A stretch of DNA of 64,000 nucleotides, from IMG/VR virus record IMGVR_UViG_3300044295_000306. One strand, written 5' to 3'. Numbering within the stretch: position 1 is the first letter of the stretch; every line of letters begins with the position of its first letter. This DNA comes from a virus (Duplodnaviria > Heunggongvirae > Uroviricota > Caudoviricetes). Made by a program: the position numbers and the translations under genes. This document shows positions 502 through 11,626 of this stretch, piece after piece. The notes beneath the pieces were generated by a model that saw nothing but the letters and a program-made list of their open reading frames with translations, ran no database searches and was not told the origin of the DNA.

Positions 502-1577
502 TACAATACTCTCAGCAAAACAGTATCGGCATTGATTCTACCGTTAAGTTTAATCTCTTTTGCTTTGATATTACCGATCAAATTACGCAAAAACACTTTA
601 CCTTCTGTAGGAATCTTACTAATAACTTGATCGGGTTTCCGAACAGTTTTCGCAATAGATTTAGATTCTGAATAATTCAATACAGAAGTACCTTTGAATC
701 CAAAACCAGATACATCATCAGCATAATAACATCCGACTTTCCGTGTTTTGATATTGTACACCCATAGACTTTGGGCACCAATGATCTTCTGCGGATCAAT
801 CGATTTAATACCAAGTTTCTTATCTTCCTTACAATACTTGATCTTTCCAACAAGCTGTTCAGCGGTCTTTACTTTACGTTTTCGCGGTTTTCGTGTTTTC
901 TTGGATTCACCAATCAGTTTTTGTGTATCATCAATAATCGATTGGATATAATCAATAAGTTTCTTGATTCCACTCTTTTTAAGATTAGAATAACCTTCAA
1001 TCAATTGTGGATTGGTAGACTTAGAAACAAATTCCAAATCATCACGAATATCTTTAAAATGCTTAACAATGAAGATACAATGAACGCTCTTCATGTTTTT
1101 TTCAATCATCACACCAAGAGGAGAACTACTTTTCTTGAATGAAGAATGGACATATTCATCAATACAACCTTCAAGTTCTCCAATACATTCACGCGCTTTT
1201 TCTTCAATTCTATCACGAATCGAAACGGTTTGTTTGATAACTTCTTTCTTAGCTTTCTTTTCCTTATGTTTCAGGAAATCAATCTTATCAGTAAAATAAA
1301 TCATATCTTTTGGAGATAGTTTAGCACCGCGAGAAAGCATACGGCATAACCAACCAAAAGTATTTGGCATTGTATCGATTCGATTATCAGTTGAAGTGAT
1401 TTTGTTCTTTTTCAGATAATCATTAATATACTTCTTGGCATTCTTAGAATCACGATTAGATGAATACCAATTGAGACTTTGAATAAGAGTTGTCTTTTCA
1501 AGGATAGAATCATTAAAGGTAGGTTCGCCACCAGTAAGGATTTTCTCATATTCTTGCTCAGTAAGCTTTTTAGCCAT
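501..1577 (-). CDS. hypothetical protein (Lys-rich, 358 aa)
   Basis: long minus ORF, no recognisable motif. Confidence 0.45.
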   Translation of the reverse strand: MAKKLTEQEYEKILTGGEPTFNDSILEKTTLIQSLNWYSSNRDSKNAKKYINDYLKKNKITSTDNRIDTMPNTFGWLCRMLSRGAKLSPKDMIYFTDKIDFLKHKEKKAKKEVIKQTVSIRDRIEEKARECIGELEGCIDEYVHSSFKKSSSPLGVMIEKNMKSVHCIFIVKHFKDIRDDLEFVSKSTNPQLIEGYSNLKKSGIKKLIDYIQSIIDDTQKLIGESKKTRKPRKRKVKTAEQLVGKIKYCKEDKKLGIKSIDPQKIIGAQSLWVYNIKTRKVGCYYADDVSGFGFKGTSVLNYSESKSIAKTVRKPDQVISKIPTEGKVFLRNLIGNIKAKEIKLNGRINADTVLLRVL

Positions 1578-1865
1578 TTAAATAATCTCAAAAAATGATT
1601 TATATTGTGCGTCTTTAATTACAAATCCGATACCATCATCAAGATTTTCATTTCGATGTTTCGGATAAACAACACTTACAGCATAATCCATAGCTTCTTG
1701 AATGTTATCAAATGACACTGAATTACCAAAACAATCTCGGATAATCGTTGGTTCAAGTGAGAAATATAGTGTTTCAGGATTGAATTCTTGATACACTTTA
1801 GCTAGATTTTTAACATATCCGGCGCGATAGCCATCAAGTGTTTTGAGAATATAGATACCTGCCAT
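1578..1865 (-). CDS. hypothetical protein
   Basis: 95-aa ORF directly abutting neighbours. Confidence 0.4.
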   Translation of the reverse strand: MAGIYILKTLDGYRAGYVKNLAKVYQEFNPETLYFSLEPTIIRDCFGNSVSFDNIQEAMDYAVSVVYPKHRNENLDDGIGFVIKDAQYKSFFEII

Positions 1866-2077
1866 TATCGTTCCAGAATCACATAATCACCAAAATACTT
1901 ATCAAACACTTGAATTAGATTCTCATAATCGCCAGAAGTCATTTCGGTAATGATTTCGTTTTTGTTTAATCCAAGTTCTTTCGCATAACGATTAGCATAT
2001 CCCATTAAACAATATGCATTACCCTCAGGACCAGTCAGATCAATTACAGGTTTATTATTTCTTTTTTTACGGATCAT
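1865..2077 (-). CDS. hypothetical protein
   Basis: 70-aa ORF; ATGA start/stop overlap with downstream ORF; sigma70-like promoter at 2105-2140. Confidence 0.4.
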   Translation of the reverse strand: MIRKKRNNKPVIDLTGPEGNAYCLMGYANRYAKELGLNKNEIITEMTSGDYENLIQVFDKYFGDYVILER

Positions 2078-2155
2078 TTCATCACCTCACATAATAATTA
2101 TATCATTTCCATAGATATTTGTCAATGAACGTAAGTCATTGATTTTATTGATAAA

Positions 2156-2233
2156 TGGTGGGCCCAGCAGGACTTGCACCCGCACTCCTTCGATCGAAGG
2201 AGTCGAACGCTTTACTGTTTAAGCTATAGGCCC
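2156..2233 (-). tRNA. tRNA-like gene, isotype undetermined (atypical anticodon arm)
   Basis: RC shows acceptor GGGCCCU/UGGGCCC, T-arm GCGGG-UGCAAGU-CCUGC, encoded CCA; anticodon region is a 20-nt perfect palindrome ACUCCUUCGAUCGAAGGAGU giving a 9-nt loop. Confidence 0.4.
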
Positions 2234-2235
2234 TT

Positions 2236-2841
2236 TTAAATCTGTAATAGTGTTGATTCATCATAAGAACCAAGAGTACCCTTAACAAAGGTATTAAATG
2301 CAAGACTACATCTTACATTAGATCCTTTCTTAAAATCAACACCATGTGTTAAACTGGAAGGAAAGATAAGAAGATCACCAGTATTGACCGAAAATGGCCA
2401 TGTAACTGAATTCCATTGATTATTAGATTCTGCTGGTATTCTTAATTGATTGAATGTTTCATTATAGAAATTAATCGAATCATTCAATGCATTGATATAA
2501 AGAACACCCGAAACAATACTATTAGGATGATTATGTTTGTGGTGTGCTTGACCCTCGGAAGTCCAATTAAGCCAAGATTGTGTTATTTGAAACTTAACAT
2601 CAAACTTAGGTCTAATGATTTCTTGCATGTAAGTATGTAGATTAGCTTCGATAAATTTTTTAATGTTATCACAGATAGGATTGTTTAATACAAATCTATC
2701 ATCTGATAGTTCATTTCTGCCTAGATTGGGCACAGTAATATTACGGAGTTTTTCGAAAAATTGATTTTCCTCGGATGTCCATTCCCTGAAAATATTTGAG
2801 TAATATACAGGAGTTGGAAAAATATCAAAAATATGATTCAT
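2236..2841 (-). CDS. 2OG-Fe(II) oxygenase superfamily protein
   Basis: His-rich HKHNHPNS...LTHGV motifs typical of 2-oxoglutarate/Fe(II) dioxygenase fold. Confidence 0.5.
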   Translation of the reverse strand: MNHIFDIFPTPVYYSNIFREWTSEENQFFEKLRNITVPNLGRNELSDDRFVLNNPICDNIKKFIEANLHTYMQEIIRPKFDVKFQITQSWLNWTSEGQAHHKHNHPNSIVSGVLYINALNDSINFYNETFNQLRIPAESNNQWNSVTWPFSVNTGDLLIFPSSLTHGVDFKKGSNVRCSLAFNTFVKGTLGSYDESTLLQI

Positions 2842-2858
2842 AAATAATTTTATTTTCT

Positions 2859-3209
2859 ATGCAAGGTATTCATTTAATAGGGGATTTTAGTGATTGTCTT
2901 GAAAATACAAGACTCATTAATCTTGTAAATTTTCAAGCGTTATGCTTGAAATATGTTGAGGAATCAAGATTAACATCACTAAATTATATATTTCATCAAT
3001 TTGATGAGGGTGGATTTACTGGTGCTATTGTTCTCGCTGAATCTCATTTAGCTATTCATACATGGCCAGAAAAAAATGGATTTACTCTAGATGTTTATGT
3101 ATGTAATTATTCACAAGATAATACTATTAAAGCAAAATGTCTATTCAATTTAGTTGTGGATTATTTTAATCCTATTAATAGGATTATTCAAGAAATAACT
3201 AGAAGTTAG
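2859..3209 (+). CDS. speD: S-adenosylmethionine decarboxylase proenzyme (small bacterial class 1 type)
   Basis: ESHLAIHTWPE pyruvoyl-processing motif plus N-terminal G-HLIGDF-C signature; one of few plus-strand genes. Confidence 0.65.
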   Translation: MQGIHLIGDFSDCLENTRLINLVNFQALCLKYVEESRLTSLNYIFHQFDEGGFTGAIVLAESHLAIHTWPEKNGFTLDVYVCNYSQDNTIKAKCLFNLVVDYFNPINRIIQEITRS

Positions 3210-3304
3210 TGGTACTCCCCCACGGAATCGAACCGTGCCGTTGCAGCCCATCTGACCGCTCTCCCGGACTTATAAGATCCAGCCGCTCACCAAAGCTGAG
3301 GAGC
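3210..3304 (-). tRNA. type-II (long variable arm) tRNA with anticodon UAU (non-canonical combination)
   Basis: acceptor GCUCCUC/GGGGAGU, anticodon stem CUGGAU/GUCCGG loop CUUAUAA, 26-nt variable region, T-arm CACGG-UUCGAUU-CCGUG, A73, CCA encoded. Confidence 0.5.
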
Positions 3305-3310
3305 AATTAT

Positions 3311-3387
3311 TGGTACCTCTCCTCGGATTCGAACCGAGAAACTACTCCTTTTGAGAGAGTTGACTTTACCAATTTGTCCAGAGAGGC
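3311..3387 (-). tRNA. type-I tRNA with anticodon CAA (Leu anticodon in short-variable-arm body)
   Basis: acceptor GCCUCUC/GAGAGGU, anticodon stem ACUCU/GGAGU loop CUCAAAA, T-arm CUCGG-UUCGAAU-CCGAG, CCA encoded. Confidence 0.5.
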
Positions 3388-3506
3388 AATACATCAGGAT
3401 AGTTTTCTACTTTTTATTTATAGTGAGAAATCGAAACTCACTTTGATATTATTTTTCAAATATCTATCTAAAATGTAATTAGTTGCAGAACCTATCCTAT
3501 TTTTAA

Positions 3507-4925
3507 TTACAGACTATATCGATCTTTCATTACAGTTTCCATCATAATATATTCTGGTGTGAAATTATCCAGATTACCCTTAAGCAATGAAGTAAGAATA
3601 CTAGGACTGAATCCAGAAACAAGTGCAGTACCAGATTCATTAAATTTCACAGGCACGTTATCATGTGCATGTAGATTCCAGAAAACAACACGAGGAGCAT
3701 TATAACCATTCGCTTCATACTTCCGACGAATCATTTCAATTGCACTGTCATCGTGTTGAGTACAAGAATCAAATTGCATGTCTGAAAGAATCAATAGCAT
3801 TTCAGGCATTTCACTTTGTGGAACTTTACCAGCAACCGCTACATTCAAAATCTTTTTAAATGCAGCAACGATATCGGTATTCATACTCCATTTTGATCTA
3901 ATCATCTGATCAATTTTTTCGTGAATATTACCGGTCAAATGCATCAATTCAGGTGAACCAGAGAAAGTCAAGAACGTATCCTTAAACTTCCCTTTATTCT
4001 TTTCAGCTAGATATAGACCCAAACTGACTGATACATCAAGACAAGTAAGATTCTTGTTTCCACCAACAGAACAAATCATTGATCCAGAAACGTCAACTAG
4101 TGGAAGAATGTTTGCATTACCAACATAGTTAGGCAAAGCTTCCCATTGTTTTTGAATAAGATCCTTTTCCACTTTATCGTAAGTTTGATTAAAACCAAAA
4201 GCACCAATACGACCCTTCAATACATCATGAGGAAAAATAGCGGATGCATTCACTTTTACATTCTTTTCACCTTTTACAAGGGAATCAACATATTCAGCAT
4301 ACTTTGGAGTATGACGATTGAATGCTTTCTTATACCGTGCTGCTGCAATAGAAGGAACATGACTGAAATTGATATTTTCCCAATCATTCGCACACATTTG
4401 AGTTTCAACAACCTTAGTCAATTCTACCAAACGCTTCCGATAGAATTTTGGAGTCCAACCAAAATATGAACGCAATTCAACAGCCTTTTCACCCTTTCGA
4501 GGCATCCATTTTGCACAAAGTCCATGACCAGCATCAAGAGCATTCTTGATCAAATCAAATGCAACATTACGAACATCACCAGATTCAAAAACAAGAAGAT
4601 CGTCCCAACGACCCACTTCAGGAACTTTATGAAGAAGTCGAATAGCATCTTGTGGATAATTTTGTGCAAGATATTTTAGAATTTGCCGAAAGATTTCACG
4701 TTCACCAGCGCCACCGCGAACATCACGTGCCCATTGTGCAATACGCAATGCAATTTCAGCATCTTCAACATAAGCACCCACAAAAGAAGGAATAATGTTT
4801 TGACCGCGGGATGCGCCGATCTTGAAAAAAAGATCAACATTCTTATTTGCGGTTTCAACACGGGCTCGCATACCATTAGTGGTACGAGTTTCTTGATTAA
4901 TAACAGCATTAACGAAAGTATTCAT
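3507..4925 (-). CDS. TROVE-like/DUF2828-type protein with C-terminal von Willebrand A (MIDAS) domain
   Basis: N-terminal LFFKIGASRG... region, C-terminal VDVSGSM MIDAS motif; 472 aa. Confidence 0.5.
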   Translation of the reverse strand: MNTFVNAVINQETRTTNGMRARVETANKNVDLFFKIGASRGQNIIPSFVGAYVEDAEIALRIAQWARDVRGGAGEREIFRQILKYLAQNYPQDAIRLLHKVPEVGRWDDLLVFESGDVRNVAFDLIKNALDAGHGLCAKWMPRKGEKAVELRSYFGWTPKFYRKRLVELTKVVETQMCANDWENINFSHVPSIAAARYKKAFNRHTPKYAEYVDSLVKGEKNVKVNASAIFPHDVLKGRIGAFGFNQTYDKVEKDLIQKQWEALPNYVGNANILPLVDVSGSMICSVGGNKNLTCLDVSVSLGLYLAEKNKGKFKDTFLTFSGSPELMHLTGNIHEKIDQMIRSKWSMNTDIVAAFKKILNVAVAGKVPQSEMPEMLLILSDMQFDSCTQHDDSAIEMIRRKYEANGYNAPRVVFWNLHAHDNVPVKFNESGTALVSGFSPSILTSLLKGNLDNFTPEYIMMETVMKDRYSL

Positions 4926-5149
4926 AATATTTACCTTTTTTCATCTGAATAGTTGTTATGATTTTTTAAAGATGATCATAAACATCTAACGGTTGCAGCT
5001 TTCGCTGCCCATGTATTTGCTGAACCTATTCATTTCTCAATCAACGGGATATCTTTTTCTTTTTTCAATAAAAGATTTTTTAATTGCTGAATGTATCCCA
5101 TATTTCTACAGATTCATCTTTATGCCAATTTACAGTTGGATTTGGTTTG

Positions 5150-5195
5150 ATTGCTGAACTGAATCTATTTCACTTATATTACTTTATTTACTGCA
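5150..5195 (-). promoter_or_regulatory. sigma70-like promoter (TTGACA-17-TAATAT)
   Basis: RC reads GCTTGACAAAATGCAGTAAATAAAGTAATAT upstream of 3507..4925. Confidence 0.5.
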
Positions 5196-5228
5196 TTTTG
5201 TCAAGCATTAGGAAACACTTTTTATTAC

Positions 5229-5301
5229 TGGCACCCCTAGAAGGAGTCAAACCTCCGCAAGCTGGATTAGAAGTCCTGCCGCCGGATTCGCCGGTAGGGG
5301 T
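5229..5301 (-). tRNA. tRNA, probably Arg(UCU), compact D-arm
   Basis: acceptor ACCCCUA/UAGGGGU perfect, T-arm GGAGG-UUUGACU-CCUUC, anticodon stem CAGGA/UCCAG (one A.A) loop CUUCUAA, CCA encoded. Confidence 0.4.
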
Positions 5302-5308
5302 ATTGTTC

Positions 5309-5393
5309 TGGTGCGAAAGGCGGGAATCGAACCCGCAAGCCCAAAGGCGTCGCGGTTTAAGCGCGATGTGTTTGCCTGTTTCACCACTCTCGC
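5309..5393 (-). tRNA. tRNA-Leu(UAA)
   Basis: acceptor GCGAGAG/CUUUCGC, anticodon stem UCGCG/CGCGA loop CUUAAAC, long variable arm, T-arm GCGGG-UUCGAUU-CCCGC, A73, CCA. Confidence 0.65.
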
Positions 5394-5404
5394 AATTCAT
5401 ACAA

Positions 5405-5435
5405 CCATTATACTATAAATTAACTATTTTGTCAA
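5405..5435 (-). promoter_or_regulatory. sigma70-like promoter (TTGACA-17-TATAAT)
   Basis: RC GCTTGACAAAATAGTTAATTTATAGTATAAT; its -10 region duplicates the 5' part of the adjacent tRNA. Confidence 0.5.
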
Positions 5436-5444
5436 GCATTTTTT

Positions 5445-5519
5445 TGGTGCTCTTAATAAGAATCAAACTTATATTTCCGCTTTACCAAAGCGGTGTAATA
5501 GTCATTATACTATAAGAGC
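5445..5519 (-). tRNA. tRNA-Thr(GGU)
   Basis: acceptor GCUCUUA/UAAGAGC, anticodon stem CCGCU/AGCGG loop UUGGUAA, T-arm AUAAG-UUUGAUU-CUUAU, CCA. Confidence 0.6.
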
Positions 5520-5524
5520 ATGTT

Positions 5525-5598
5525 TGGTGCCTCTTGACAGAATCGAACTGCCGTAACGGCCTTGTAAGGACCGAGTTCTACCATTAAACTAAAGAGGC
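5525..5598 (-). tRNA. tRNA-Val(UAC)
   Basis: acceptor GCCUCUU/AAGAGGC, anticodon stem CGGUC/GGCCG loop CUUACAA, T-arm GGCAG-UUCGAUU-CUGUC, CCA. Confidence 0.6.
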
Positions 5599-6162
5599 AT
5601 TTTCTTTCTTAATTCTTTCCATTAAATCATCAAAAAGAATTGGTGTATAATCAAGATGCTCAACCGACACACAATGATACCATGGATCGATCTTATTATC
5701 TTTCATAACACGCCTATCATGTAAATGTCCATGAATATTACCTGCAAATCTCCCTTTACTATCAGGATGAACGGGTACATGACTGAGAATAAAGTTATTC
5801 ATTACATGGTATGCTCTTATATCTCTAAAATACTTAACATATTCTTCTAGTTTAAAGATATCATGATTACCCTTAATAAGAACTTTATCTCCATTAAGCT
5901 TTTCGAGGGTAGGAAATGCTTTTTTGTTAATAAGAACATCACCAAGATGATAGACTTTATCTTTAGGACCAACAACGCTATTCCATTTAGCGATCATATC
6001 TTGATCCATTTGGAATGGATCATTCCATGGACGGAGTTTGGAAACTCCATCAGAGCCTGTAAATTTACAAACACCGAGGTGTCCGAAATGGGTATCTGCT
6101 ACTAAAAAAGTTTTCATAATTTTATATATGTTAGTGGGGTAATCTATGGGTAACGATCCCAT
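5584..6162 (-). CDS. calcineurin-like metallophosphoesterase (Ser/Thr phosphatase family)
   Basis: DTHFGH and GNHD metal-binding motifs. Confidence 0.6.
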   Translation of the reverse strand: MGSLPIDYPTNIYKIMKTFLVADTHFGHLGVCKFTGSDGVSKLRPWNDPFQMDQDMIAKWNSVVGPKDKVYHLGDVLINKKAFPTLEKLNGDKVLIKGNHDIFKLEEYVKYFRDIRAYHVMNNFILSHVPVHPDSKGRFAGNIHGHLHDRRVMKDNKIDPWYHCVSVEHLDYTPILFDDLMERIKKENASLV

Positions 6163-6211
6163 TCTATCACTTTCACAGAGTGAGGTGCTAAACCTTTACA
6201 CTAAGATTACC
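6135..6211 (-). tRNA. tRNA-His(GUG) with encoded G-1 and C73
   Basis: acceptor GUAAUCU/AGAUUAC, extra 5' G opposite C73, anticodon stem UCACU/AGUGA loop CUGUGAA, T-arm AUGGG-AUCGUUA-CCCAU, CCA. Confidence 0.6.
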
Positions 6212-6216
6212 ATTGT

Positions 6217-6291
6217 TGGTCTCACCGAGAGGAATCAAACCTCTATCATGACCTTAGGAGTGTCTTATTCTATTCATTGAACTACGGTGAG
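6217..6291 (-). tRNA. tRNA, probably Arg(CCU) (weak anticodon stem)
   Basis: acceptor CUCACCG/CGGUGAG, D-stem GUUC/GAAU, loop CUCCUAA, T-arm AGAGG-UUUGAUU-CCUCU, CCA. Confidence 0.45.
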
Positions 6292-6294
6292 ATG

Positions 6295-6365
6295 TGCCGA
6301 ATAATGGAATCGAGCCATTGTCTATGTTTTACGAGAACATTGTTTTACCACTAAACTAATTCGGC
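6295..6365 (-). tRNA. tRNA-Thr(CGU), CCA not encoded
   Basis: acceptor GCCGAAU/AUUCGGC, D-stem GUUU/AAAC, anticodon stem AUGUU/AACAU loop CUCGUAA, T-arm AAUGG-CUCGAUU-CCAUU. Confidence 0.55.
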
Positions 6366-6370
6366 TAATC

Positions 6371-6445
6371 TGGAGCGGATATCCGGTAACGATCCGGAAT
6401 CTAAACTTTGGCAAAGTTTCGTGCGTCCATTCTCACTCTATCCGC
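6371..6445 (-). tRNA. tRNA-Gly(GCC)
   Basis: acceptor GCGGAUA/UAUCCGC, anticodon stem AAACU/AGUUU loop UUGCCAA, T-arm UCCGG-AUCGUUA-CCGGA, CCA. Confidence 0.55.
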
Positions 6446-6960
6446 ATTTGTTTCCATCTATTTCGTATAGCATCTGAGATTTTTTTTCTATGCTCAACAG
6501 ATTTTTTTCTGCCCTTTAGTGTTTCGGAAATTTTTTTCCTATTGTTTTCATTTTTCATCGGATGATTTTCCATTATTTTTAGCTTATGGTTTTCCGATAA
6601 TTTAATTCCTTTTTTTGCTTCAGATATCTTTTTCTTTGTTTCATCAGATAGTTTTGCTCCGGTTCTGAGTCCTTTACCTGAGCGATTTATATATCCGAAA
6701 CCACCTTTACCACCATCACAGATATTATATGAATTTTCATTCAAAACCACAAGTTCTTTCTCTTTATTTCGCATATCATTCTCATTATCAAAAATATGGA
6801 GAATTTCTTTTGTGAAATTGTCCATGCCGTATTTTTCAATGGCCTTTTTGATAATTTTTCCAGAGCCCATATAGCCGTCATTCAGGCAGTCTGTCTGGTG
6901 CATTCCGATATAAAACTTGTTGTTTATTTTATTTGTGACTTTATATACCGTATAGAACAT
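6433..6960 (-). CDS. GIY-YIG homing endonuclease
   Basis: N-terminal FYTVYKVTNKINNKFYIGMH GIY-YIG motif, basic C-terminal DNA-binding tail; 3' end overlaps tRNA-Gly. Confidence 0.65.
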   Translation of the reverse strand: MFYTVYKVTNKINNKFYIGMHQTDCLNDGYMGSGKIIKKAIEKYGMDNFTKEILHIFDNENDMRNKEKELVVLNENSYNICDGGKGGFGYINRSGKGLRTGAKLSDETKKKISEAKKGIKLSENHKLKIMENHPMKNENNRKKISETLKGRKKSVEHRKKISDAIRNRWKQMRIE

Positions 6961-7033
6961 TATATTTCTCCTATAATGTTCTATTTAGTCATGCAAGGTG
7001 GCAGGCTACCATTACATCATGACCGCTTTATTT

Positions 7034-7516
7034 CTATGCTGCACGATACTGACTCATGACTTCTTTATAACGATCAGCACAGTAAGATGCCGCAAAAGCT
7101 TGTGGTTTTACTAGAGGAACAACATTACAAGTTCCACGAATATAACCGATAGCTTGTTGTACAACACAGCTTGAACCATGCATTTCATCTGGATTAATAT
7201 CTAGATGAACTTCTACTTCACGATCTTCCAGTACATCAGCAAGTTTTTGAAACATTTCGCTTGCTTTATATACTTCATTCATCAATCTCATTGCAGGTTT
7301 ATCTTTGCGTTGATCATAATCACGTTCTCTTGTTACTTCACCGAATACACGACAACCATGTTTACCATCAACGTGAACAACAACAACGACAGTATAATCA
7401 GCATACCATACGCCATTATTTCTAAATCTTTCCGAATCTGCACCAATATAGATACGAGATTCAGGACTTTGCGCGTCAATGAAAGCTTTTACTTCGTTTA
7501 AATTAATTTTCTTCAT
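7034..7516 (-). CDS. hypothetical protein, possible RNase H-like (DUF458-like) fold
   Basis: IYIGADSE...VVVVVH motif pattern; weak. Confidence 0.3.
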   Translation of the reverse strand: MKKINLNEVKAFIDAQSPESRIYIGADSERFRNNGVWYADYTVVVVVHVDGKHGCRVFGEVTRERDYDQRKDKPAMRLMNEVYKASEMFQKLADVLEDREVEVHLDINPDEMHGSSCVVQQAIGYIRGTCNVVPLVKPQAFAASYCADRYKEVMSQYRAA

Positions 7517-7535
7517 GTTATCACCTCTACGTTAA

Positions 7536-7611
7536 TGGCGTCCCGAGAGAGATTCGAACTCCCACCCTTAGTTTTGGAGACTAATATGCTGCCGTTAAAC
7601 ACTATCGAGAC
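7536..7611 (-). tRNA. tRNA-Trp(CCA)
   Basis: acceptor GUCUCGA/UCGGGAC, anticodon stem UUAGU/ACUAA loop CUCCAAA, T-arm GGGAG-UUCGAAU-CUCUC, G73, CCA. Confidence 0.55.
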
Positions 7612-7614
7612 ATT

Positions 7615-7688
7615 TGGTACCCAGAACTGGTAACGATCCAGTGTCTCTCGGTTATCAGCCGAGGGCTCTACCTTTGAGCTATCCGGGT
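7615..7688 (-). tRNA. tRNA-Ile(GAU)
   Basis: acceptor ACCCGGA/UCUGGGU, D-stem GCUC/GAGC, anticodon stem CUCGG/CCGAG loop CUGAUAA, T-arm ACUGG-AUCGUUA-CCAGU, CCA. Confidence 0.6.
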
Positions 7689-7693
7689 ATAAC

Positions 7694-7769
7694 TGGTGCC
7701 TCCTTGTGGTTACGCTCCACACTCCCACGCTCTTCAGGCGTATGCTTTCACTAGATTAGCTTAGGAGGC
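7694..7769 (-). tRNA. tRNA-Phe(GAA) (unusual T-loop AGCGUAA)
   Basis: acceptor GCCUCCU/AGGAGGC, anticodon stem UACGC/GCGUG loop CUGAAGA, T-stem UGUGG/CCACA, CCA. Confidence 0.5.
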
Positions 7770-8129
7770 TTATCCTGCACTTCTTGTAATAAAGTTAGTT
7801 CTTACCTTCTTGGGTTTGAAATACTTATTAATTAATTCTTTACAAATCTCTACATCAACTGTTTTACAACTAAACACATCGATATAAAAATCACCATTAT
7901 CATCTACAAAATGTCCTGTGATTGAACTAGTCTCAATCATTTGACACAAACTAAATCCTGATTTGGTTGGATCATGTTGAGCAAAATGAACAATAGAAGG
8001 TTCACCATATGCAACCATTTCAATCGCAGGAACAAGTTCTTTTACAAAACTATAAATCTTATCTTTTGATCTAACACAATCAAGTTCACCCTGACTGCAA
8101 TCAAACATTGCATGATAACCCCAATACAT
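7770..8129 (-). CDS. S-adenosylmethionine decarboxylase-like paralog (divergent)
   Basis: ETSSITGHFVDDNGDFYIDVFSC aligns to ESHLTIHTWPE...IDLFTC of class-1 AdoMetDC; N-terminal G-H-F-C pattern conserved. Confidence 0.45.
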   Translation of the reverse strand: MYWGYHAMFDCSQGELDCVRSKDKIYSFVKELVPAIEMVAYGEPSIVHFAQHDPTKSGFSLCQMIETSSITGHFVDDNGDFYIDVFSCKTVDVEICKELINKYFKPKKVRTNFITRSAG

Positions 8130-8148
8130 AATATATATCCTTTTAGTC

Positions 8149-8223
8149 TGGTGGTAATAAAGGGACTTGAACCCCTACCTTACTCCGTATGAAGGAGGCG
8201 CACTACCATTATGCTATATTACC
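8149..8223 (-). tRNA. tRNA with CAU anticodon (Met or Ile2)
   Basis: acceptor GGUAAUA/UAUUACC, D-stem GCAU/GUGC, loop UUCAUAC, T-arm AGGGG-UUCAAGU-CCCUU, CCA. Confidence 0.55.
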
Positions 8224-8740
8224 TTATTGTTAATATTATTGTTTCATCTGTATTAATCTGTATTTTATCTCTTTTTCTCTTTAATGTCAATTCTTCAAAA
8301 GAAATATATTTTCTATCATAATAAGAATCAAATAATCTTACTCTCTCTTTAGCCAAATCAACATTAGATACTACACTCCAATGATACCAAGGATTACTTA
8401 TAGAAATTATAGCAATGTTATCATCACTCTTACTTAGTTCTTCATATAAACAAGCAAGATATTCTTCAATACAATCAAAATGATCCAATTCAAATGTCTG
8501 ATCATATTTTATTTTTGAAAAACCTTTTTGCTTCTTTAATACATTTAGAAGAAATATAATATCTTCAACATAAGAACCTTGAATATATCTCATATGGAAT
8601 GTTCGTGCTTTTACTGTAATCAATTTATTCAGTATATTCTCAGCTTTTTTTGTTGTTAGTTCTTTCTTATAATGTAAAGCATTGATTATTGAATAAAATC
8701 CACACATTCCATCTAAACTTCCTTGCTTAAATGCTTCCAT
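8219..8740 (-). CDS. hypothetical protein, possible papain-like cysteine peptidase fold
   Basis: GMCGFYSIINAL N-terminal Cys motif and downstream His; weak. Confidence 0.3.
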   Translation of the reverse strand: MEAFKQGSLDGMCGFYSIINALHYKKELTTKKAENILNKLITVKARTFHMRYIQGSYVEDIIFLLNVLKKQKGFSKIKYDQTFELDHFDCIEEYLACLYEELSKSDDNIAIISISNPWYHWSVVSNVDLAKERVRLFDSYYDRKYISFEELTLKRKRDKIQINTDETIILTIR

Positions 8741-8756
8741 GATATAACTTTCAAAG

Positions 8757-8831
8757 TGGTACCACCTGAAGGAATCAAACCCTCAATTCAAGGTCCGTAG
8801 CCAAGCGTGATATTCGTTTCACCAAGGTGGT
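8757..8831 (-). tRNA. tRNA-Arg(ACG) (anticodon stem with U.U mismatches)
   Basis: acceptor ACCACCU/AGGUGGU, D-stem GUGA/UCAC, loop CUACGGA, T-arm GAGGG-UUUGAUU-CCUUC, CCA. Confidence 0.5.
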
Positions 8832-8837
8832 ATTAAT

Positions 8838-8925
8838 TGGTGCTGGGCACAGGATTCGAACCTGCGTAGGAATTTCTTCCGCTTGCTTACAAGGCAAGTG
8901 CTTTTAGCCACTCAGCCAACCCAGC
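8838..8925 (-). tRNA. type-II (Ser/Leu-like body) tRNA with anticodon UGU (non-canonical)
   Basis: acceptor GCUGGGU/GCCCAGC, D-region UGGCUGAGUGGCUAAAAGC Ser-like, anticodon stem CUUGC/GCAAG loop CUUGUAA, variable arm CGGAAGAAAUUCCUAC, A73, CCA. Confidence 0.5.
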
Positions 8926-8929
8926 ATAT

Positions 8930-9004
8930 TGGTGGAGACTGGGGGAGTCGAACCCCCGACTTCGCGGTGCAAGCGCAATGTTTTCCCAACTATACTAAGT
9001 CCCC
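8930..9004 (-). tRNA. tRNA-Ala(UGC)
   Basis: acceptor GGGGACU/AGUCUCC (G3.U70), anticodon stem UUGCG/CGCGA loop CUUGCAC, T-arm GGGGG-UUCGACU-CCCCC, CCA. Confidence 0.6.
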
Positions 9005-9117
9005 AAATTCTTTACGGTTACGAACTTCCGTAGTCATTTTATCGTAATGACCGATAGATTGTCGCAGACAACCCGAATAACACGCTATCGAGAAAGGATA
9101 ATATCAATAGAATTTCA

Positions 9118-9158
9118 ATGAAGTCTGTACATTATACTATATAACATTATTTTTGTCA
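9118..9158 (-). promoter_or_regulatory. internal sigma70-like promoter in tRNA cluster (TTGACA-17-TATAAT)
   Basis: RC CCAGTTGACAAAAATAATGTTATATAGTATAATGTACAG. Confidence 0.5.
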
Positions 9159-9160
9159 AC

Positions 9161-9238
9161 TGGTAGGAATGGAGGGATTCGAACCCATCACTTGGCAGAT
9201 TAAAAGTCTGCTGTGCTAACCGTTAACACTACATTCCC
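9161..9238 (-). tRNA. tRNA-Lys(UUU)
   Basis: acceptor GGGAAUG/CAUUCCU, D-stem GUGU/GCAC, anticodon stem GCAGA/UCUGC loop CUUUUAA, T-arm UUCGAAU loop, CCA. Confidence 0.6.
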
Positions 9239-9244
9239 AATTCA

Positions 9245-9320
9245 TGGTGGAGACAGAGGGACTTGAACCCATCAACCTCCCGGTTAAGAGCCGGTTACTC
9301 TACCATTGAGTTATATCTCC
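9245..9320 (-). tRNA. tRNA-Lys(CUU)
   Basis: acceptor GGAGAUA/UGUCUCC, D-stem ACUC/GAGU, loop CUCUUAA, T-loop UUCAAGU, CCA. Confidence 0.55.
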
Positions 9321-9326
9321 ATTTCT

Positions 9327-9404
9327 TGGAGTAGTGAGTCGGAATCGAACCGACGGCTTTAGAGTTTTGCAGACTCTTGCATTGGGCCTCTCTGCCATCA
9401 CTAC
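9327..9404 (-). tRNA. tRNA-Cys(GCA)
   Basis: acceptor GUAGUGA/UCACUAC, anticodon stem AGAGU/ACUCU loop CUGCAAA, T-arm GUCGG-UUCGAUU-CCGAC, U73, CCA. Confidence 0.6.
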
Positions 9405-9412
9405 ATTATTTT

Positions 9413-9496
9413 TGGTGCCCGAAGAGGGACTTGAACCCCCACGCCTTGCGGCACATGCTTCTAAGACATGCGTGGCTGCCATTACACCATTCGGGC
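9413..9496 (-). tRNA. tRNA-Leu(UAG)
   Basis: acceptor GCCCGAA/UUCGGGC, anticodon stem CAUGU/GCAUG loop CUUAGAA, long variable arm, T-arm GGGGG-UUCAAGU-CCCUC, A73, CCA. Confidence 0.65.
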
Positions 9497-9503
9497 AATA
9501 CAT

Positions 9504-9597
9504 TGGTGGAAGATAGAGGATTCGAACCTCTGGTCCGATTTTCATCGGACTACGATTTAGCAAATCGCTGCAATCGACCGGACTCTGCCAATCTTCC
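9504..9597 (-). tRNA. tRNA-Ser(GCU)
   Basis: acceptor GGAAGAU/AUCUUCC, anticodon stem GCGAU/AUCGU loop UUGCUAA, long variable arm GUCCGAU..AUCGGAC, T-arm AGAGG-UUCGAAU-CCUCU, CCA. Confidence 0.65.
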
Positions 9598-9604
9598 TTA
9601 ATTT

Positions 9605-9681
9605 TGGTTGCGGGAAACAGGAGTCGAACCTGATATCTCTGGCTTATGAGACCAGTATGTAAACCGTTTCACTCTCCCGCA
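9605..9681 (-). tRNA. tRNA with CAU anticodon (second copy; Met or Ile2)
   Basis: acceptor UGCGGGA/UCCCGCA, anticodon stem CUGGU/GCCAG loop CUCAUAA, T-loop UUCGACU, CCA. Confidence 0.55.
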
Positions 9682-9687
9682 TTTGTT

Positions 9688-9740
9688 TGGTGGTAGGCCA
9701 ACTATCTCATGAAAATAGTCGAATCCGGAATATGCCTACC
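9688..9740 (-). other. 53-nt tRNA-like minihelix / truncated tRNA pseudogene
   Basis: perfect 7-bp acceptor stem GGUAGGC/GCCUACC plus ACCA, single internal 5-bp hairpin ACUAU-UUUCAUGAG-AUAGU, no D- or T-arm. Confidence 0.4.
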
Positions 9741-9746
9741 GTTGAT

Positions 9747-9832
9747 TGGTGCGTCAGGTAGGATTCGAACCTACTCAGCCTGAGGCGACGGATTTACAGT
9801 CCGTTGTAACTCTCCCACTTTACCGCTGACGC
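9747..9832 (-). tRNA. tRNA-Tyr(GUA), bacterial type with long variable arm
   Basis: acceptor GCGUCAG/CUGACGC, D-stem GUAA/UUAC, anticodon stem ACGGA/UCCGU loop CUGUAAA, variable stem CCU/AGG, T-arm GUAGG-UUCGAAU-CCUAC, A73, CCA. Confidence 0.65.
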
Positions 9833-9852
9833 ATTGTTAGTTTGCTCAATTC

Positions 9853-9928
9853 TGGTCTCTCTAAAAGGATTTGAACCTTTACCTCATGCTCCCAAAGCAC
9901 GAACGCTGCCAGATTACGCCATAGAGAG
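9853..9928 (-). tRNA. tRNA-Pro(UGG)
   Basis: acceptor CUCUCUA/UAGAGAG, anticodon stem CGUGC/GCAUG loop UUUGGGA (G37), T-arm AAAGG-UUCAAAU-CCUUU, CCA. Confidence 0.6.
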
Positions 9929-10099
9929 ATATCTATCTATATAAGATTGAATTTCATTCTTATATCTGCTGTGCATATATTGAATTCTTGGGAGGATTAT
10001 TTTAGTGCCTCCCGGTCACCATCATCAACGCATTACCGTTTACCCCATGCTCGGTTATTTTCACGGCTTTCTTTGACTTAAATTAAAAGATGATCCTTT

Positions 10100-10214
10100 T
10101 ACGATATGTGGCCACACGCCGCGGACCCACGGCCCTATATCAACCCAATAGGAAAGGATCATTGACTGGCGCCGATACGGGGTTACGATCCCCGACTATA
10201 GCCTTGACAGGGCC
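10100..10214. other. GC-rich structured island inside AT-rich tRNA cluster, contains plus-strand promoter
   Basis: local GC far above background; GGCCCUAUA...UAUAG..GGGCC long-range stem; GGGG-TTACGAT-CCCC hairpin; TTGACA-18-TACACT facing the plus-strand ORF. Confidence 0.35.
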
Positions 10215-10553
10215 ATGTGCAGACCACTACACTATATCGGCTTTATATATAACTTTATGATTTATTATTACATTATGGTCGACCCTGATAAACCTAATAA
10301 ATGTAAATTAGGTATCACTAAAGATCCACAACAACGTATTAAAGCTTATAAAACGGCTGCTCCTAATTGCTATTTCTTAGCAGTCTATATTATACCTGAA
10401 AAATATCACGAAAAACGTATTCTTGATATCATTAAAGATGTTTTTCGTGTTGAAAGTGAATATGTTCATTGTCCACCTTCTCTTATTAAAAACATCGTTG
10501 AATGTTATTTTACAGATAATAACATTATTACTGGCGGAGAGGGAGGGACTTGA
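10215..10553 (+). CDS. T5orf172/GIY-YIG-superfamily homing-endonuclease-like protein (true start probably near 10275)
   Basis: KCKLGITKDPQQRIKAYKT motif; plus strand; 3' end overlaps minus-strand tRNA-Ser. Confidence 0.4.
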   Translation: MCRPLHYIGFIYNFMIYYYIMVDPDKPNKCKLGITKDPQQRIKAYKTAAPNCYFLAVYIIPEKYHEKRILDIIKDVFRVESEYVHCPPSLIKNIVECYFTDNNIITGGEGGT

Positions 10554-10625
10554 ACCCCCACACCCCTTACAGGGGCCCTCTGTTTTCAAGACAGCTGCCG
10601 CTAGGCCAACTCGGCTAACCTCTCC
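10532..10625 (-). tRNA. tRNA-Ser(UGA)
   Basis: acceptor GGAGAGG/CCUCUCC, loop CUUGAAA, long variable arm, T-arm GGGGG-UUCAAGU-CCCUC, G73, CCA. Confidence 0.6.
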
Positions 10626-10631
10626 TAATTC

Positions 10632-10704
10632 TGGAGCGTCCAGGCGGATTCGAACCGTCTCCGACAGCTTGGAAGGCTGTGTCCTCTCCCAGGAGAATGA
10701 ACGC
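10632..10704 (-). tRNA. tRNA-Gly(UCC)
   Basis: acceptor GCGUUCA/UGGACGC, anticodon stem ACAGC/GCUGU loop CUUCCAA, T-arm GACGG-UUCGAAU-CCGCC, U73, CCA. Confidence 0.55.
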
Positions 10705-10711
10705 ATATTCT

Positions 10712-10785
10712 TGGCAGCCCCGCTTGGAATCGAACCAAGATCGATAGATTCAAAATCTATTGTTTTACCATTACACTACGAGGCA
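10712..10785 (-). tRNA. tRNA-Gln(UUG)
   Basis: acceptor (U)GCCUCG/CGGGGCU, anticodon stem AUAGA/UCUAU loop UUUUGAA, T-arm CUUGG-UUCGAUU-CCAAG, G73, CCA. Confidence 0.55.
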
Positions 10786-10794
10786 ATTGTCTGA

Positions 10795-10819
10795 CTCCGC
10801 CCAGAGGAATCGAACCTCT
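10795..10819 (-). pseudogene. tRNA 3' fragment (T-arm plus 3' acceptor strand only)
   Basis: AGAGG-UUCGAUU-CCUCU T-arm followed by GGGCGGA with no matching 5' acceptor strand. Confidence 0.35.
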
Positions 10820-10845
10820 CTAATACGGAATCATATTATGATTTG

Positions 10846-10920
10846 CTGACCGAGCTGGAATCGAACCAGCCTATTCTTGATTAACAGTCAAGCCCGCCTC
10901 ACCTTGAACGGTATCGGTCA
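10846..10920 (-). tRNA. tRNA-Asn(GUU), no encoded CCA, embedded in 21-bp extended helix
   Basis: acceptor UGACCGA/UCGGUCA continued by perfect flanking inverted repeat ATATTATGATTTGC (10833-10846) / GCAAATCATAATAT (10921-10934); anticodon stem CUUGA/UCAAG loop CUGUUAA; T-arm GCUGG-UUCGAUU-CCAGC. Confidence 0.55.
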
Positions 10921-11065
10921 GCAAATCATAATATTTTCATTTCTTCTATACCATATTGAAATGCTCAACTTTTTCAGATTGACTAGAAATTGTAGATCAG
11001 TGTTGGCTGCCACCAACTAATCATCTAACCCCTTTTGGCAGTTAGAGGCTTAAGCATTTCAATAT

Positions 11066-11140
11066 GCAAACTCATTGTAGGCAGGACTCGAACCTGCAAG
11101 TGGCGTTTATTTCCACCGGCCCTCAATGAGAGCCTATGTT
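11066..11140 (-). other. degenerate tRNA-like element (acceptor-like stem + T-arm, no D-arm)
   Basis: CUCAUUG/CAAUGAG 7-bp stem, T-arm GCAGG-UUCGAGU-CCUGC, internal GUGG..CCAC hairpin; lies between CCATATTGAA-type inverted repeats. Confidence 0.3.
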
Positions 11141-11212
11141 TATCCATTCCATCACTACGAGTTTCTGGGCTCATGACTTCCCAGTATGGAGCAGGGTAAT
11201 TAAGCCTGCTTT

Positions 11213-11349
11213 ACCATATTGAAGCATACTAAGGAGTTGAACCTCCTACAACCATTGTAAGGTTGTCCTCACCGAAGAAATATGACATTCAATAATTAAA
11301 TTCTGTGATCAGCAGGTTAATTATTGACTGCTAATATGCTTCAATATGG
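11213..11349 (-). other. tRNA-like element with ~40-nt insertion, enclosed by 14-bp inverted repeat
   Basis: CCATATTGAAGCAT (11213-11226) / ATGCTTCAATATGG (11336-11349) form acceptor-like 14-bp helix; internal ACAACC-UUACAAU-GGUUGU hairpin and AGGAG-GUUCAAC-CUCCU T-arm-like hairpin. Confidence 0.3.
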
Positions 11350-11425
11350 CGCTCTCACGGGGATTCGAACCCACGCTTTCTGCCTTGAAAGGGCAGCGTC
11401 CTCAATACCAATAGACGATGAGAGC
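11347..11425 (-). tRNA. tRNA-Glu(UUC)
   Basis: acceptor GCUCUCA/UGAGAGC, anticodon stem CUGCC/GGCAG loop CUUUCAA, T-loop UUCGAAU, G73, CCA. Confidence 0.55.
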
Positions 11426-11452
11426 AAGTGTTTCCTAATTGTTAAAGAGCAC

Positions 11453-11490
11453 TACAAAAACAAAACCCCAAGCTTTTTAGACTTGGGGTT
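11453..11490 (-). terminator. Rho-independent terminator (minus strand)
   Basis: AACCCCAAG-UCUAAAAAG-CUUGGGGUU 9-bp stem followed by UUUUGUUUUUGU on the minus strand; second hairpin GGGGUUUGUGU..ACACAAACCCC just upstream. Confidence 0.55.
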
Positions 11491-11515
11491 TGTGTTAAAA
11501 CTTTTATTACCTACT

Positions 11516-11620: not shown

Positions 11621-11626
11621 GTAACT

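Follow-up and report, generated by a model that had tools for sequence, protein, structure and literature searches.

A phage tRNA(UAU) with a second, isoleucine-anticodon-like arm is probably an isoleucine tRNA and belongs to a large family in phages and bacteria

Which amino acids are delivered by phage transfer RNAs (tRNAs) whose bodies and anticodons seem not to belong together? The question is raised by three tRNA genes in a 64,000-nt stretch of DNA from a virus of the class Caudoviricetes (IMG/VR record IMGVR_UViG_3300044295_000306), which we refer to as the window. A sequence-only reading had folded two of them by hand as long-variable-arm tRNAs with UAU and UGU anticodons and the third as a short-arm tRNA with a CAA anticodon. 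It proposed that leucyl- or seryl-tRNA synthetase (LeuRS, SerRS) might charge the long-arm bodies whatever their anticodon and so mis-insert Leu or Ser at AUA and ACA codons, or else that the two are unusual Ile(UAU) and Thr(UGU) isoacceptors. Our analysis indicates that all three are, with high confidence, functional, conserved tRNAs with standard decoding. Two of them (CAA and UGU) have precedents or simple explanations; the UAU tRNA belongs to a large family with a conserved second anticodon-like arm. The main feature of that arm, an invariant GAU in its loop, was absent from the earlier reading.

The genes were located with ARAGORN and with the Rfam tRNA model RF00005 (gathering score 29). 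ARAGORN returned all three on the minus strand with the coordinates and anticodons of the hand folds, at 3210–3304 (tat, 95 nt), 3311–3387 (caa, 77 nt) and 8838–8925 (tgt, 88 nt), and none of the anticodons was displaced. The Rfam result was divided: the CAA and UGU tRNAs scored 58.7 and 56.9 bits, respectively, but the UAU tRNA stayed below gathering for every family, and its best match, to tRNA-Sec, reached 24.9 bits where gathering requires 47. Despite this low score the UAU gene is real, given its five-helix fold, the covariation described below and a pattern for its family that matches once in the window and is expected zero times (100 shuffles). Its parts, and the ordinary tRNA-Ile of the same phage with which it is compared, are as follows.

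3210–3304, minus strand: five-arm tRNA(UAU), 95 nt, with CCA at 3210–3212 and A73 at 3213 (ARAGORN, minimum-free-energy fold, covariation)
3285–3296, minus strand: compact D arm, 4-bp stem and 4-nt loop UGGU; 100% paired, with compensatory changes at 4/4 pairs
3264–3282, minus strand: arm 1, a 6-bp anticodon stem with loop CUUAUAA; UAU at 3272–3274
3243–3259, minus strand: arm 2, a 5-bp stem (GCGGU/GCUGC) with the 7-nt loop CAGAUGG; GAU at loop positions 3–5 (3250–3252)
3221–3237, minus strand: T arm, 5 bp, loop UUCGAUU (fold and covariation)
7615–7688, minus strand: ordinary tRNA-Ile(GAU), loop CUGAUAA (ARAGORN)

The minimum-free-energy fold of the UAU tRNA is a five-helix cloverleaf with a 7-bp acceptor stem. 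The 26-nt variable region seen by hand was recovered (tRNA positions 42–67), but it is not an ordinary variable arm, since it forms a 5-bp stem closed by a 7-nt loop. Arm 1 starts one nucleotide after the D stem, like a normal anticodon arm, and has Y32, U33, UAU and A37; in the window copy A37 is followed by A38. Four nucleotides separate arms 1 and 2, and five separate arm 2 from the T stem. The spacer after arm 2 (4–5 nt) has the length of a type I variable loop, and its last base is able to pair with position 15 as in the Levitt pair. The GAU in the loop of arm 2 is the anticodon of the major tRNA-Ile and stands at the anticodon position. No conserved AUCU complement to arm 2 was seen elsewhere in the tRNA when a few sequences were inspected by eye.

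Is the second arm a peculiarity of this phage? A blastn search with the window UAU tRNA gave no match. Relatives selected without regard to the GAU motif were reached through a neighbouring gene (3507–4925, minus strand, inside the tRNA array), which encodes a DUF2828/DUF7788 Ro60-related protein. Among 33 viral loci fetched through DUF2828, 11 carry a 92–96-nt tRNA(UAU) and two a plain 74-nt tRNA(UAU). The AGAU of the second loop is invariant in the long UAU genes reached in this way (12/12), while the stem beneath it changes by compensatory substitutions. A motif-free scan of viral contigs gave 118 unique matches, 93 of them with YAGAU. Of the 25 left over, about a dozen are ordinary tRNAs picked up through the acceptor region. 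The remaining true long-arm UAU genes comprise six with CUGAUUA, CUGAUUU, CCGAUUA or CUGAUAA (the last of which matches the loop of E. coli tRNA-Ile1), about four with other extra arms and one, at locus L158, with GAC. Because the variant loops keep GAU while the preceding base is A, U or C, GAU is the constant element. We also considered whether arm 2 is an ordinary variable-arm loop motif and rejected this, since AGAU occurs in only 2–4% of the variable arms of Ser, Leu and Tyr tRNAs. The exception at L158 (IMGVR_UViG_3300021091_000193, ~7899, plus strand) has the second loop UGGACGA, with GAC, the Val anticodon, at loop positions 3–5; such a variant from nature could show whether amino-acid identity is set by arm 2.

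The family falls into two subfamilies, one with a canonical D arm (A4) and one with a compact D arm (A5), and the window copy belongs to the latter. The proposed pairs of the compact subfamily are 99.5% paired, compared with 37–48% when the partners are slid, and 26/27 show compensatory changes (17 relatives); for the canonical subfamily the values are 94.7%, 35–47% and 22/25. In both, the seven acceptor pairs are 99–100% paired and all covary, and the five T-stem pairs are 100% paired. We also compiled 112 unique sequences, mostly picked with an AGAU pattern, so that the invariance of the second loop in that set is by construction. Its loop is always 7 nt long in this set, and stem levels 1–3 are 99–100% paired with 4–5 pair types each. 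Level 3, the equivalent of the pair 29-41, is C-G in 86%, and loop position 7, the equivalent of position 38, is A in 80%. For comparison, C29-G41 is found in 51% of ordinary phage tRNA-Ile(GAU) and in 10–19% of other isotypes. The A37 equivalent of arm 2 is A in only 36% and U in 57/112, and about 95% of members have A at the equivalent of position 33. A73 is present in 112/112; U33 and A37 of arm 1 are likewise present in 112/112, by construction because the set was selected on a TTATA pattern. A covariance model of the family (R1) aligns the anticodon arm of the phage tRNA-Ile(GAU) onto arm 2 and that of a CAU tRNA onto arm 1; R1 matches ordinary tRNAs as well as or better than family members and so does not discriminate, showing only which arm aligns.

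Five-arm genes are widespread. They occur on at least 120 viral contigs and on at least 120 bacterial genome contigs (one genome per species), where nearly every match listed is a true member; the relatives number more than 200 in all. Near-identical copies are found in Acidobacteriota, in arrays of 10–31 genes with the order Asn-Met-Ile(UAU)-Val-Ile(GAU)-Lys. Other carriers include Pyrinomonadaceae, Rhodobacteraceae, Xanthomonas, Stenotrophomonas, Pseudoxanthomonas, Microbulbifer, Marinobacter and Azospirillum. In 40 bacterial loci among the matches listed, the five-arm gene is the sole tRNA, at sites that resemble genomic islands. Two cultured phages also carry it: in Sinorhizobium phage Phosso a member is annotated as tRNA-Ile(tat), and Synechococcus phage S-SRM01 (MW015081.1, our locus L325, ~32,944–33,035) has a clear member that lacks an encoded CCA and is unannotated in GenBank. 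Several Acidobacteriota loci (L205, L249, L253, L255, L290 and others) hold 20–31 tRNA genes in 8 kb, including five-arm UAU, and the same arrays contain short-arm Leu tRNAs of 77–78 nt and over-long tRNAs, for example Arg tRNAs of 88–90 nt (L212, L258).

What could a second arm of this kind do? AUA is the hardest sense codon for bacteria, which normally read it with a dedicated CAU tRNA, the essential enzyme TilS and a lysidine-tuned isoleucyl-tRNA synthetase (IleRS). In E. coli, IleRS recognises A73, N34, A35, U36, the modified base t6A37, A38 and minor stem pairs including C29-G41 (PMC9976931). IleRS clamps the anticodon stem-loop, which lies at the far end of the L, with a zinc-binding domain reading N34 (PMC11685878). 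For the E. coli enzyme, tRNA-Ile2 with UAU is a 360-fold poorer substrate than its lysidine counterpart (PMC3575796 Table 1). Set against these determinants, the window UAU tRNA has the A73 of bacterial tRNA-Ile. Its decoding arm has U34-A35-U36 where bacterial tRNA-Ile has G34 or lysidine-34, and GAU stands at the equivalent positions of arm 2. We judge it probable that the UAU tRNA has Ile identity.

Our favoured explanation, on which our confidence is evenly divided, is that the anticodon arm has been duplicated, so that UAU would decode AUA while the GAU arm would supply determinants for IleRS; that arm 2 itself acts as an IleRS determinant we hold at slightly less than an even chance. The gene most likely arose when a tRNA-Ile(GAU) had its anticodon arm duplicated in tandem, after which G34 became U in copy 1 and U33 became A in copy 2. 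Duplication is the simplest origin in view of the size of arm 2, the position of its GAU, the variable-loop-like spacer that follows it and the normal type of arm 1, and the alignment of the Ile(GAU) and CAU arms by R1 is consistent with it. The strong purifying selection on GAU, combined with the replacement of U33 by A, suggests a loop that is to be recognised rather than to decode. Under the duplication model, IleRS, which reads G34 or k2C34 (lysidine) with A35 and U36 and handles UAU poorly, would be offered GAU by arm 2, probably in its anticodon-arm site, through an alternative stacking of the five-way junction. On the ribosome, arm 1 would decode AUA, and arm 2 would be tolerated like a class II variable arm. 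The outcome would be an AUA decoder for mobile DNA that needs neither TilS nor a specialised IleRS. Charging with Ile, the part of arm 2 in IleRS recognition and the swap of arms are all things that we infer. More tentatively, and at somewhat less than even confidence, we suggest that the tRNA splits identity from decoding, that it is a portable, modification-independent AUA decoder which has spread through phages, mobile tRNA arrays and genomic islands in different bacterial phyla, and that this explains the RNAs known as allo-tRNA-UAU.

Parts of this scheme have parallels. The tRNA-like structure of turnip yellow mosaic virus is valylated through an anticodon-like loop that serves as a synthetase determinant only and not for decoding. 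Such viral structures lie at the 3' ends of RNA genomes, whereas the phage mimic would sit on a decoding tRNA. Unmodified UAU also reads AUA as Ile without lysidine in Mycoplasma mobile and other bacteria that lack tilS (PMC3575796). There the solution lies in the enzyme, as Arg865 of IleRS recognises U34 in an ordinary type I tRNA (PMC3575796); the solution proposed for the phage lies instead in the tRNA, through an added GAU arm, with an unadapted IleRS.

Several observations weigh against the duplicated-arm explanation. When a tRNA takes the standard L-shape, its variable arm is directed away from the site at which a class I synthetase binds the anticodon, so arm 2 could reach IleRS only through a hypothetical alternative conformer. 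Arm 2 usually has no A37 equivalent and so cannot carry t6A37, a strong determinant for E. coli IleRS. The window arm 2 has GAU but a G.U pair at level 3, the equivalent of 29-41, and G at loop position 7. The extra arm is not always needed, as shown by the plain 74-nt tRNA(UAU) of loci L008 and L015, and either of the two CAU tRNAs of the window (8149–8223 and 9609–9680) could be an AUA decoder of the lysidine type. Most of the family counts, finally, come from sequences selected with a pattern that contains AGAU.

Alternatively, arm 2 might bind a partner other than IleRS, while A73, together with A35, U36 and t6A37 in arm 1, would still direct charging with Ile. Candidate partners are a modification enzyme, a quality-control protein such as the Ro60-related protein of the array or a host anticodon nuclease, for which the arm would be a decoy; alternatively, the arm might tune decoding, for example by lessening misreading of AUG. 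That variable arms normally face away from class I synthetases fits this proposal, and so does the incomplete way in which the invariant loop copies the IleRS set (no A37 equivalent, A for U33). The plain tRNA(UAU) of related phages implies that the IleRS of some hosts may accept UAU, and the gene for the DUF2828/DUF7788 protein is syntenic with these tRNAs in the 33 viral loci fetched through it. However, we know of no tRNA-binding factor that recognises AGAU in a 7-nt loop, and it would have to be by chance that a loop of anticodon size shows precisely the Ile anticodon where an anticodon would stand. Nor would such a partner account readily for variants that keep GAU while changing the base before it (A, U or C), or for the solitary bacterial copies, where reading five 8-kb loci by eye, with no domain-library scan, revealed no Ro60-like open reading frame (ORF). 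We consider a different partner unlikely, though likelier than the other rivals of the duplicated-arm explanation.

Could arm 2 decode as well? If both arms did so, AUA would be read by arm 1 and AUU/AUC by arm 2, depending on which of them the tRNA presented; in a variant of this idea, one arm would be excised after transcription. At four loci (L159, L162, L165 and L171) the second loop, CUGAUAA or CUGAUUA, is canonical throughout and includes U33, ARAGORN sometimes calls arm 2 as the anticodon, Ile(gat), in Stenotrophomonas-type copies, and the phage encodes an RNA ligase (36625–37653). Against this stand the A at the position 33 equivalent of nearly all members, which is incompatible with a U-turn, and the ordinary tRNA-Ile(GAU) genes that adjoin the five-arm gene. 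We know of no bacterial mechanism for excising such a hairpin, and no ligase was found among the ORFs read by eye at five solitary bacterial loci. Decoding by both arms, or excision of one, thus seems very unlikely.

It could also be asked whether the five-arm RNA is an adaptor at all, a question that turns on its relation to allo-tRNA-UAU (PMC5389517; reviewed in PMC7609411). Those RNAs, like the family described here, resemble tRNA-Sec: their anticodon is UAU, the anticodon stem and the extra arm are both long, and the D arm ends in a tetraloop. They are common in Acidobacteria and soil metagenomes, where the five-arm family also occurs. The window subfamily shares these structural features, with a 26-nt variable region, an anticodon stem of 6 bp and a D arm of 4 bp closed by 4 nt; the D arm of the other subfamily is canonical. 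An acceptor/T branch of 8/4 or 9/3 defines the allo-tRNAs, most of which have G73 or U73 (PMC5389517), in contrast to the 7/5 branch and A73 of the five-arm family. We tried the 8/4 and 9/3 folds and rejected them: covariation supports 7/5, and in the window copy the bases available for an eighth acceptor pair are A and G. In view of its occurrence in Acidobacteria, its likeness to tRNA-Sec and its junction of five stems, the five-arm family probably is the same as, or overlaps, allo-tRNA-UAU, as far as descriptions can be compared. The main text of PMC5389517 makes no mention of the GAU loop, assumes Ser identity and judges the RNAs probably non-translational.

The experiments behind that judgement weigh against the duplicated-arm explanation and favour a regulatory or selfish tRNA-like RNA, linked to transposons or toxin-antitoxin systems as has been proposed for allo-tRNA-UAU, over an adaptor. 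Six allo-tRNA-UAU converted to CUA gave no rescue of a Ser146TAG reporter, two were toxic or lethal, and the authors conclude that most of these RNAs probably have no part in translation (PMC5389517). Some copies are pseudogenes near transposon or toxin-antitoxin genes (PMC5389517; PMC7609411), and the window copy falls below gathering on the Rfam tRNA model. The reporter of Mukai et al., however, required Ser or Ala, so insertion of Ile would have scored negative. A non-adaptor would also sit oddly with the encoded CCA, A73, canonical T loop, G18G19 and well-paired 7/5 branch of the family copies, with their place in phage and bacterial arrays beside Met, Val and Ile(GAU), where an AUA decoder is expected, and with heavy use of ATA, as Ile, by the phage. 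We regard a non-adaptor RNA as improbable.

We now turn to the proposal that LeuRS or SerRS charges the long-arm bodies and places Leu or Ser at AUA and ACA codons. It can draw on the allo-tRNAs that insert Ser at Leu codons, on the compatibility of A73 with LeuRS and on nematode nev-tRNA-Ile(UAU), which accepts Leu in vitro (PMC3333845, PMC4300185). The nev-tRNA resembles the phage tRNA in combining a class II shape with UAU; it is eukaryotic and has a tRNA-Leu-like body, no anticodon-like loop has been reported in its variable arm (PMC3333845, PMC4300185), and AUA in the present phage is, by contrast, read as Ile. To examine how the phage reads the codons concerned, we aligned its UDP-galactopyranose mutase (9 ATA codons) and the alpha subunit of ribonucleotide reductase (RNR alpha; 10 ATA codons) with 119 homologues each. 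At ATA sites the homologues have I 0.74, V 0.06 and L 0.05 in the mutase and I 0.51, V 0.38 and L 0.04 in RNR alpha, so that I and V together reach 0.80–0.89, and Ser is outside the six commonest residues in both proteins. Several ATA sites have Ile in 116–119 of the 119 homologues. Sites with ATT or ATC give I 0.78 (mutase) and 0.76 (RNR alpha), ACA sites T 0.43 and 0.76, and TTG sites L 0.58 and 0.94, respectively. Alignments with solved structures concur.

Overall, the phage appears to use the standard genetic code. The 19 ATA sites compared, all from these two proteins, refute a proteome-level change of the codon to Leu or Ser, although low-level mischarging could escape such a comparison, and the mis-insertion of Leu or Ser suggested by the sequence-only reading finds no support. 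The tRNAs themselves point the same way. Ser tRNAs of E. coli have G73, and C2-G71 is a SerRS antideterminant (PMC9976931); both long phage tRNAs have A73 together with C2-G71, which argues against the idea that SerRS charges them. A Leu body was considered for the UAU tRNA and rejected, as its 4-nt D loop lacks the Leu-type A14/A15 arrangement. Moreover, LeuRS and SerRS ignore the sequence of the variable loop, so recoding would leave the invariant GAU unexplained. With the evidence on the Thr tRNA given below, we consider Leu/Ser recoding extremely unlikely. What stands of the earlier interpretations is the other one: both long tRNAs belong to conserved families with determinants appropriate to unusual Ile(UAU) and Thr(UGU) isoacceptors, so far as sequence comparison can tell.

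Use of the codon is itself uneven. ATA makes up 25% of the Ile codons of the phage (276 of 16,083 codons), and AGA 45% of its Arg codons. In a per-gene table covering 500–64000, ATA use is bimodal among genes and AGA behaves similarly. ATA is rare or missing among the Ile codons of the genes at 501–1577 (0/37), 3507–4925 (0/27), 13153–14463 (1/39), 21547–22380 (0/19) and 31604–32395 (0/21), and some ATA-poor genes at 0.5–33 kb have only 32–37% GC; in most genes at 34–64 kb ATA accounts for ~25–85% of Ile codons. This pattern may reflect early versus late expression relative to the supply of phage tRNAs, or genes of different origin. One block of genes (~17500–22400, with ~27200–27800) has a GC content of 0.45–0.57, much above the rest of the window; most of its genes are without ATA (two have 4–5) and almost none has AGA.

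The second of the three genes, which combines a Leu anticodon with a short variable loop, can be accounted for more simply.

3311–3387, minus strand: type I tRNA-Leu(CAA), 77 nt, anticodon at 3351–3353, variable loop AGUUU, G1.U72, A73 (ARAGORN, Rfam)

The 5-nt variable loop found by hand was reproduced in the Rfam alignment, and together with the Leu anticodon it makes this a type I tRNA-Leu. When aligned with the type II Leu tRNAs of the same phage, the CAA tRNA agrees in A73, U8, U48 and the D loop AAAUUGGUAAA, and its D loop element AAUUGGUA is the same as theirs; the arrangement also agrees with that of E. coli tRNA-Leu. All of the LeuRS identity elements that we looked for are present (A73, U8-A14, A15-U48, G18G19 and the Leu-type D loop). 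The elements read by LeuRS have thus been kept in the absence of the long arm, and, as judged from its sequence, the gene is a tRNA-Leu(CAA) that has lost that arm. It is a further case of a type already known, with a characterised bacterial precedent that the earlier reading lacked. Streptomyces coelicolor has a type I tRNA-Leu(CAA), with the same short variable loop and CAA anticodon, that is charged well by its own LeuRS (kcat/Km 6.25 s-1 uM-1, compared with 14.2 s-1 uM-1 for a type II tRNA-Leu), a case that shows the long arm to be dispensable for bacterial LeuRS (PMC6614811). Mitochondrial tRNA-Leu has a short variable loop as well. The phage versions differ from that of S. coelicolor in being phage-encoded and widespread in phage and mobile tRNA arrays, and in having five anticodons: related loci yielded 59 unique short Leu tRNAs, with the anticodons CAA, UAG, UAA, GAG and AAG.

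The third gene has a hairpin in its variable region. It is listed here with the other Thr tRNAs of the array.

8838–8925, minus strand: tRNA-Thr(UGU), 88 nt, anticodon at 8889–8891 (ARAGORN, Rfam)
8869–8880, minus strand: GGAA-GAAA-UUCC hairpin in the variable region of tRNA-Thr(UGU)
5445–5519: tRNA-Thr(GGU) (ARAGORN)
6294–6365: tRNA-Thr(CGU) (ARAGORN)

The GGAA/UUCC stem described earlier was borne out and is capped by GAAA; the D stem has 3 bp and its loop 11 nt, and alignment to the Rfam tRNA model places a 13-nt insertion in the variable region. As had been noted, Thr(GGU) and Thr(CGU) are present, and ARAGORN found no second Thr(UGU). Identity for threonyl-tRNA synthetase (ThrRS) in E. 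coli and T. thermophilus depends on G1-C72, C2-G71, G35 and U36. The Thr(UGU) tRNA has all of these elements, and G1-C72, C2-G71, UGU and A73 are invariant across the 11 long and normal relatives, namely the window copy, four syntenic Thr(UGU) tRNAs of 83 nt and six of 75–76 nt. Its A73 and C2-G71 make it a poor candidate for SerRS, and G15-C48, in place of the Leu-type A15-U48, argues in the same way against LeuRS. Pairwise identity of its body is 0.71–0.75 to many tRNAs alike and singles out no origin from a Ser tRNA of the same phage. Hairpins also occur in relatives, as GG-GAAA-CC (L002, L004, L005, L007) and CUC-AAAA-GAG (L198), and among the Asn, Glu, Gly, Pro and Trp tRNAs of related phages, variable regions with similar GNRA- or UUCG-capped hairpins are found sporadically. 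On this sequence evidence, we conclude that the gene encodes a tRNA-Thr with a decorated variable region.

All three genes lie in a tRNA array of an AT-rich window (~34% GC) with nearly all genes on the minus strand. The array and the genes scattered among its tRNAs are listed below.

2156–11425, minus strand: tRNA array, 30 genes by ARAGORN; Rfam adds 2159–2233 and 7697–7769
2236–2841, minus strand: 2-oxoglutarate-Fe(II) oxygenase
2859–3209, plus strand: S-adenosylmethionine (AdoMet)-decarboxylase-family protein
6433–6960, minus strand: GIY-YIG/NUMOD3 homing-endonuclease-like gene, between tRNA genes
7034–7516, minus strand: PF04308 RNase H-like protein
7770–8129, minus strand: second AdoMet-decarboxylase-family protein
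8219–8740, minus strand: very AT-rich ORF, between tRNA genes (GC 0.25; ATA is 10/19 of its Ile codons)

A metallophosphatase gene is also interspersed in the array. The AdoMet-decarboxylase-family, oxygenase and RNase H-like proteins among the tRNAs could have nucleotide- or tRNA-modifying functions, and the homing-endonuclease-like gene and the AT-rich ORF may drive shuffling of the array. The DUF2828/DUF7788 protein, which some phages annotate as Ro60-related or RNA-binding, may serve in quality control of unusual tRNAs in the array. Many of the related viral loci (L001–L033) have the DUF2828 gene followed by Gly-GCC, Thr-UGU, Gly-UCC and Ile-UAU, with the order kept. As a Ro60-related gene lies beside it, we considered whether the UAU tRNA is a Y RNA or YrlA and rejected this identity: no such Rfam model matched at E <= 1 in 1–14000 or at E <= 10 in 3190–3400, and the RNA has a full acceptor stem with CCA. 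Beyond the array the window encodes DNA ligase, the RNA ligase mentioned above, both RNR subunits and UDP-galactopyranose mutase. A megablast search of 3000–12000 against deposited phages returned short tRNA matches only and no close relative, and proteins identical to two window proteins lie on Joint Genome Institute contigs of up to 307 kb; the window therefore comes from a large uncultured phage.

Several other tRNA-like genes of the array are unusual. The one at 2159–2233 (minus strand; Rfam 53.3 bits, missed by ARAGORN) has a normal acceptor stem, D arm and CCA end, the unusual T loop UGCAAGU and an anticodon region with two possible folds, one a stem of 5 bp below a 9-nt loop (CUCCUUCGA) and the other a hairpin of 8 bp capped by the tetraloop GAUC. 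At 11073–11161 (minus strand) ARAGORN calls an 89-nt "tRNA-Asn(att)" that has no Rfam match; with a long extra arm, a good T arm, acceptor mismatches, no CCA and the loop UCAUUGA, which places C at position 33, this tRNA-like RNA is probably degenerate or does not decode. An Arg(UCU)-like sequence at ~5225–5300 (minus strand), missed by both ARAGORN and Rfam, has an A.A mismatch in its anticodon stem and the T loop GUUUGAC, and a Phe(GAA) tRNA at 7697–7769 (minus strand; Rfam 38 bits, missed by ARAGORN) has the T loop AGCGUAA. The tRNA-Ser(GCU) at 9504–9597 (minus strand) has A73, in contrast to the G73 typical of bacterial tRNA-Ser, which the tRNA-Ser(UGA) at 10532–10625 has.

The rule that a long arm means Leu, Ser or Tyr and a short arm the rest is thus often broken in phage arrays without any change of code. 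Phage tRNA repertoires may be undercounted, since the window copy of the five-arm tRNA falls below the Rfam gathering score and that of S-SRM01 is unannotated. A full-text literature search, whose coverage leaves out most subscription journals, turned up no description of a GAU-bearing extra arm; the five-arm family is large, is present in both phages and bacteria and has been little studied. If the duplicated-arm explanation is true, housing an IleRS determinant on a second arm of the tRNA itself would represent a novel route to tRNA identity, and a role would be found for a large group of RNAs so far dismissed as probably outside translation. Such a tRNA would also suggest to genetic-code engineers a strategy, taken from nature, for reassigning codons in cases where the synthetase recognises the anticodon. 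For the phages themselves, it would explain how AT-rich genomes and mobile arrays supply AUA decoding in unrelated hosts.

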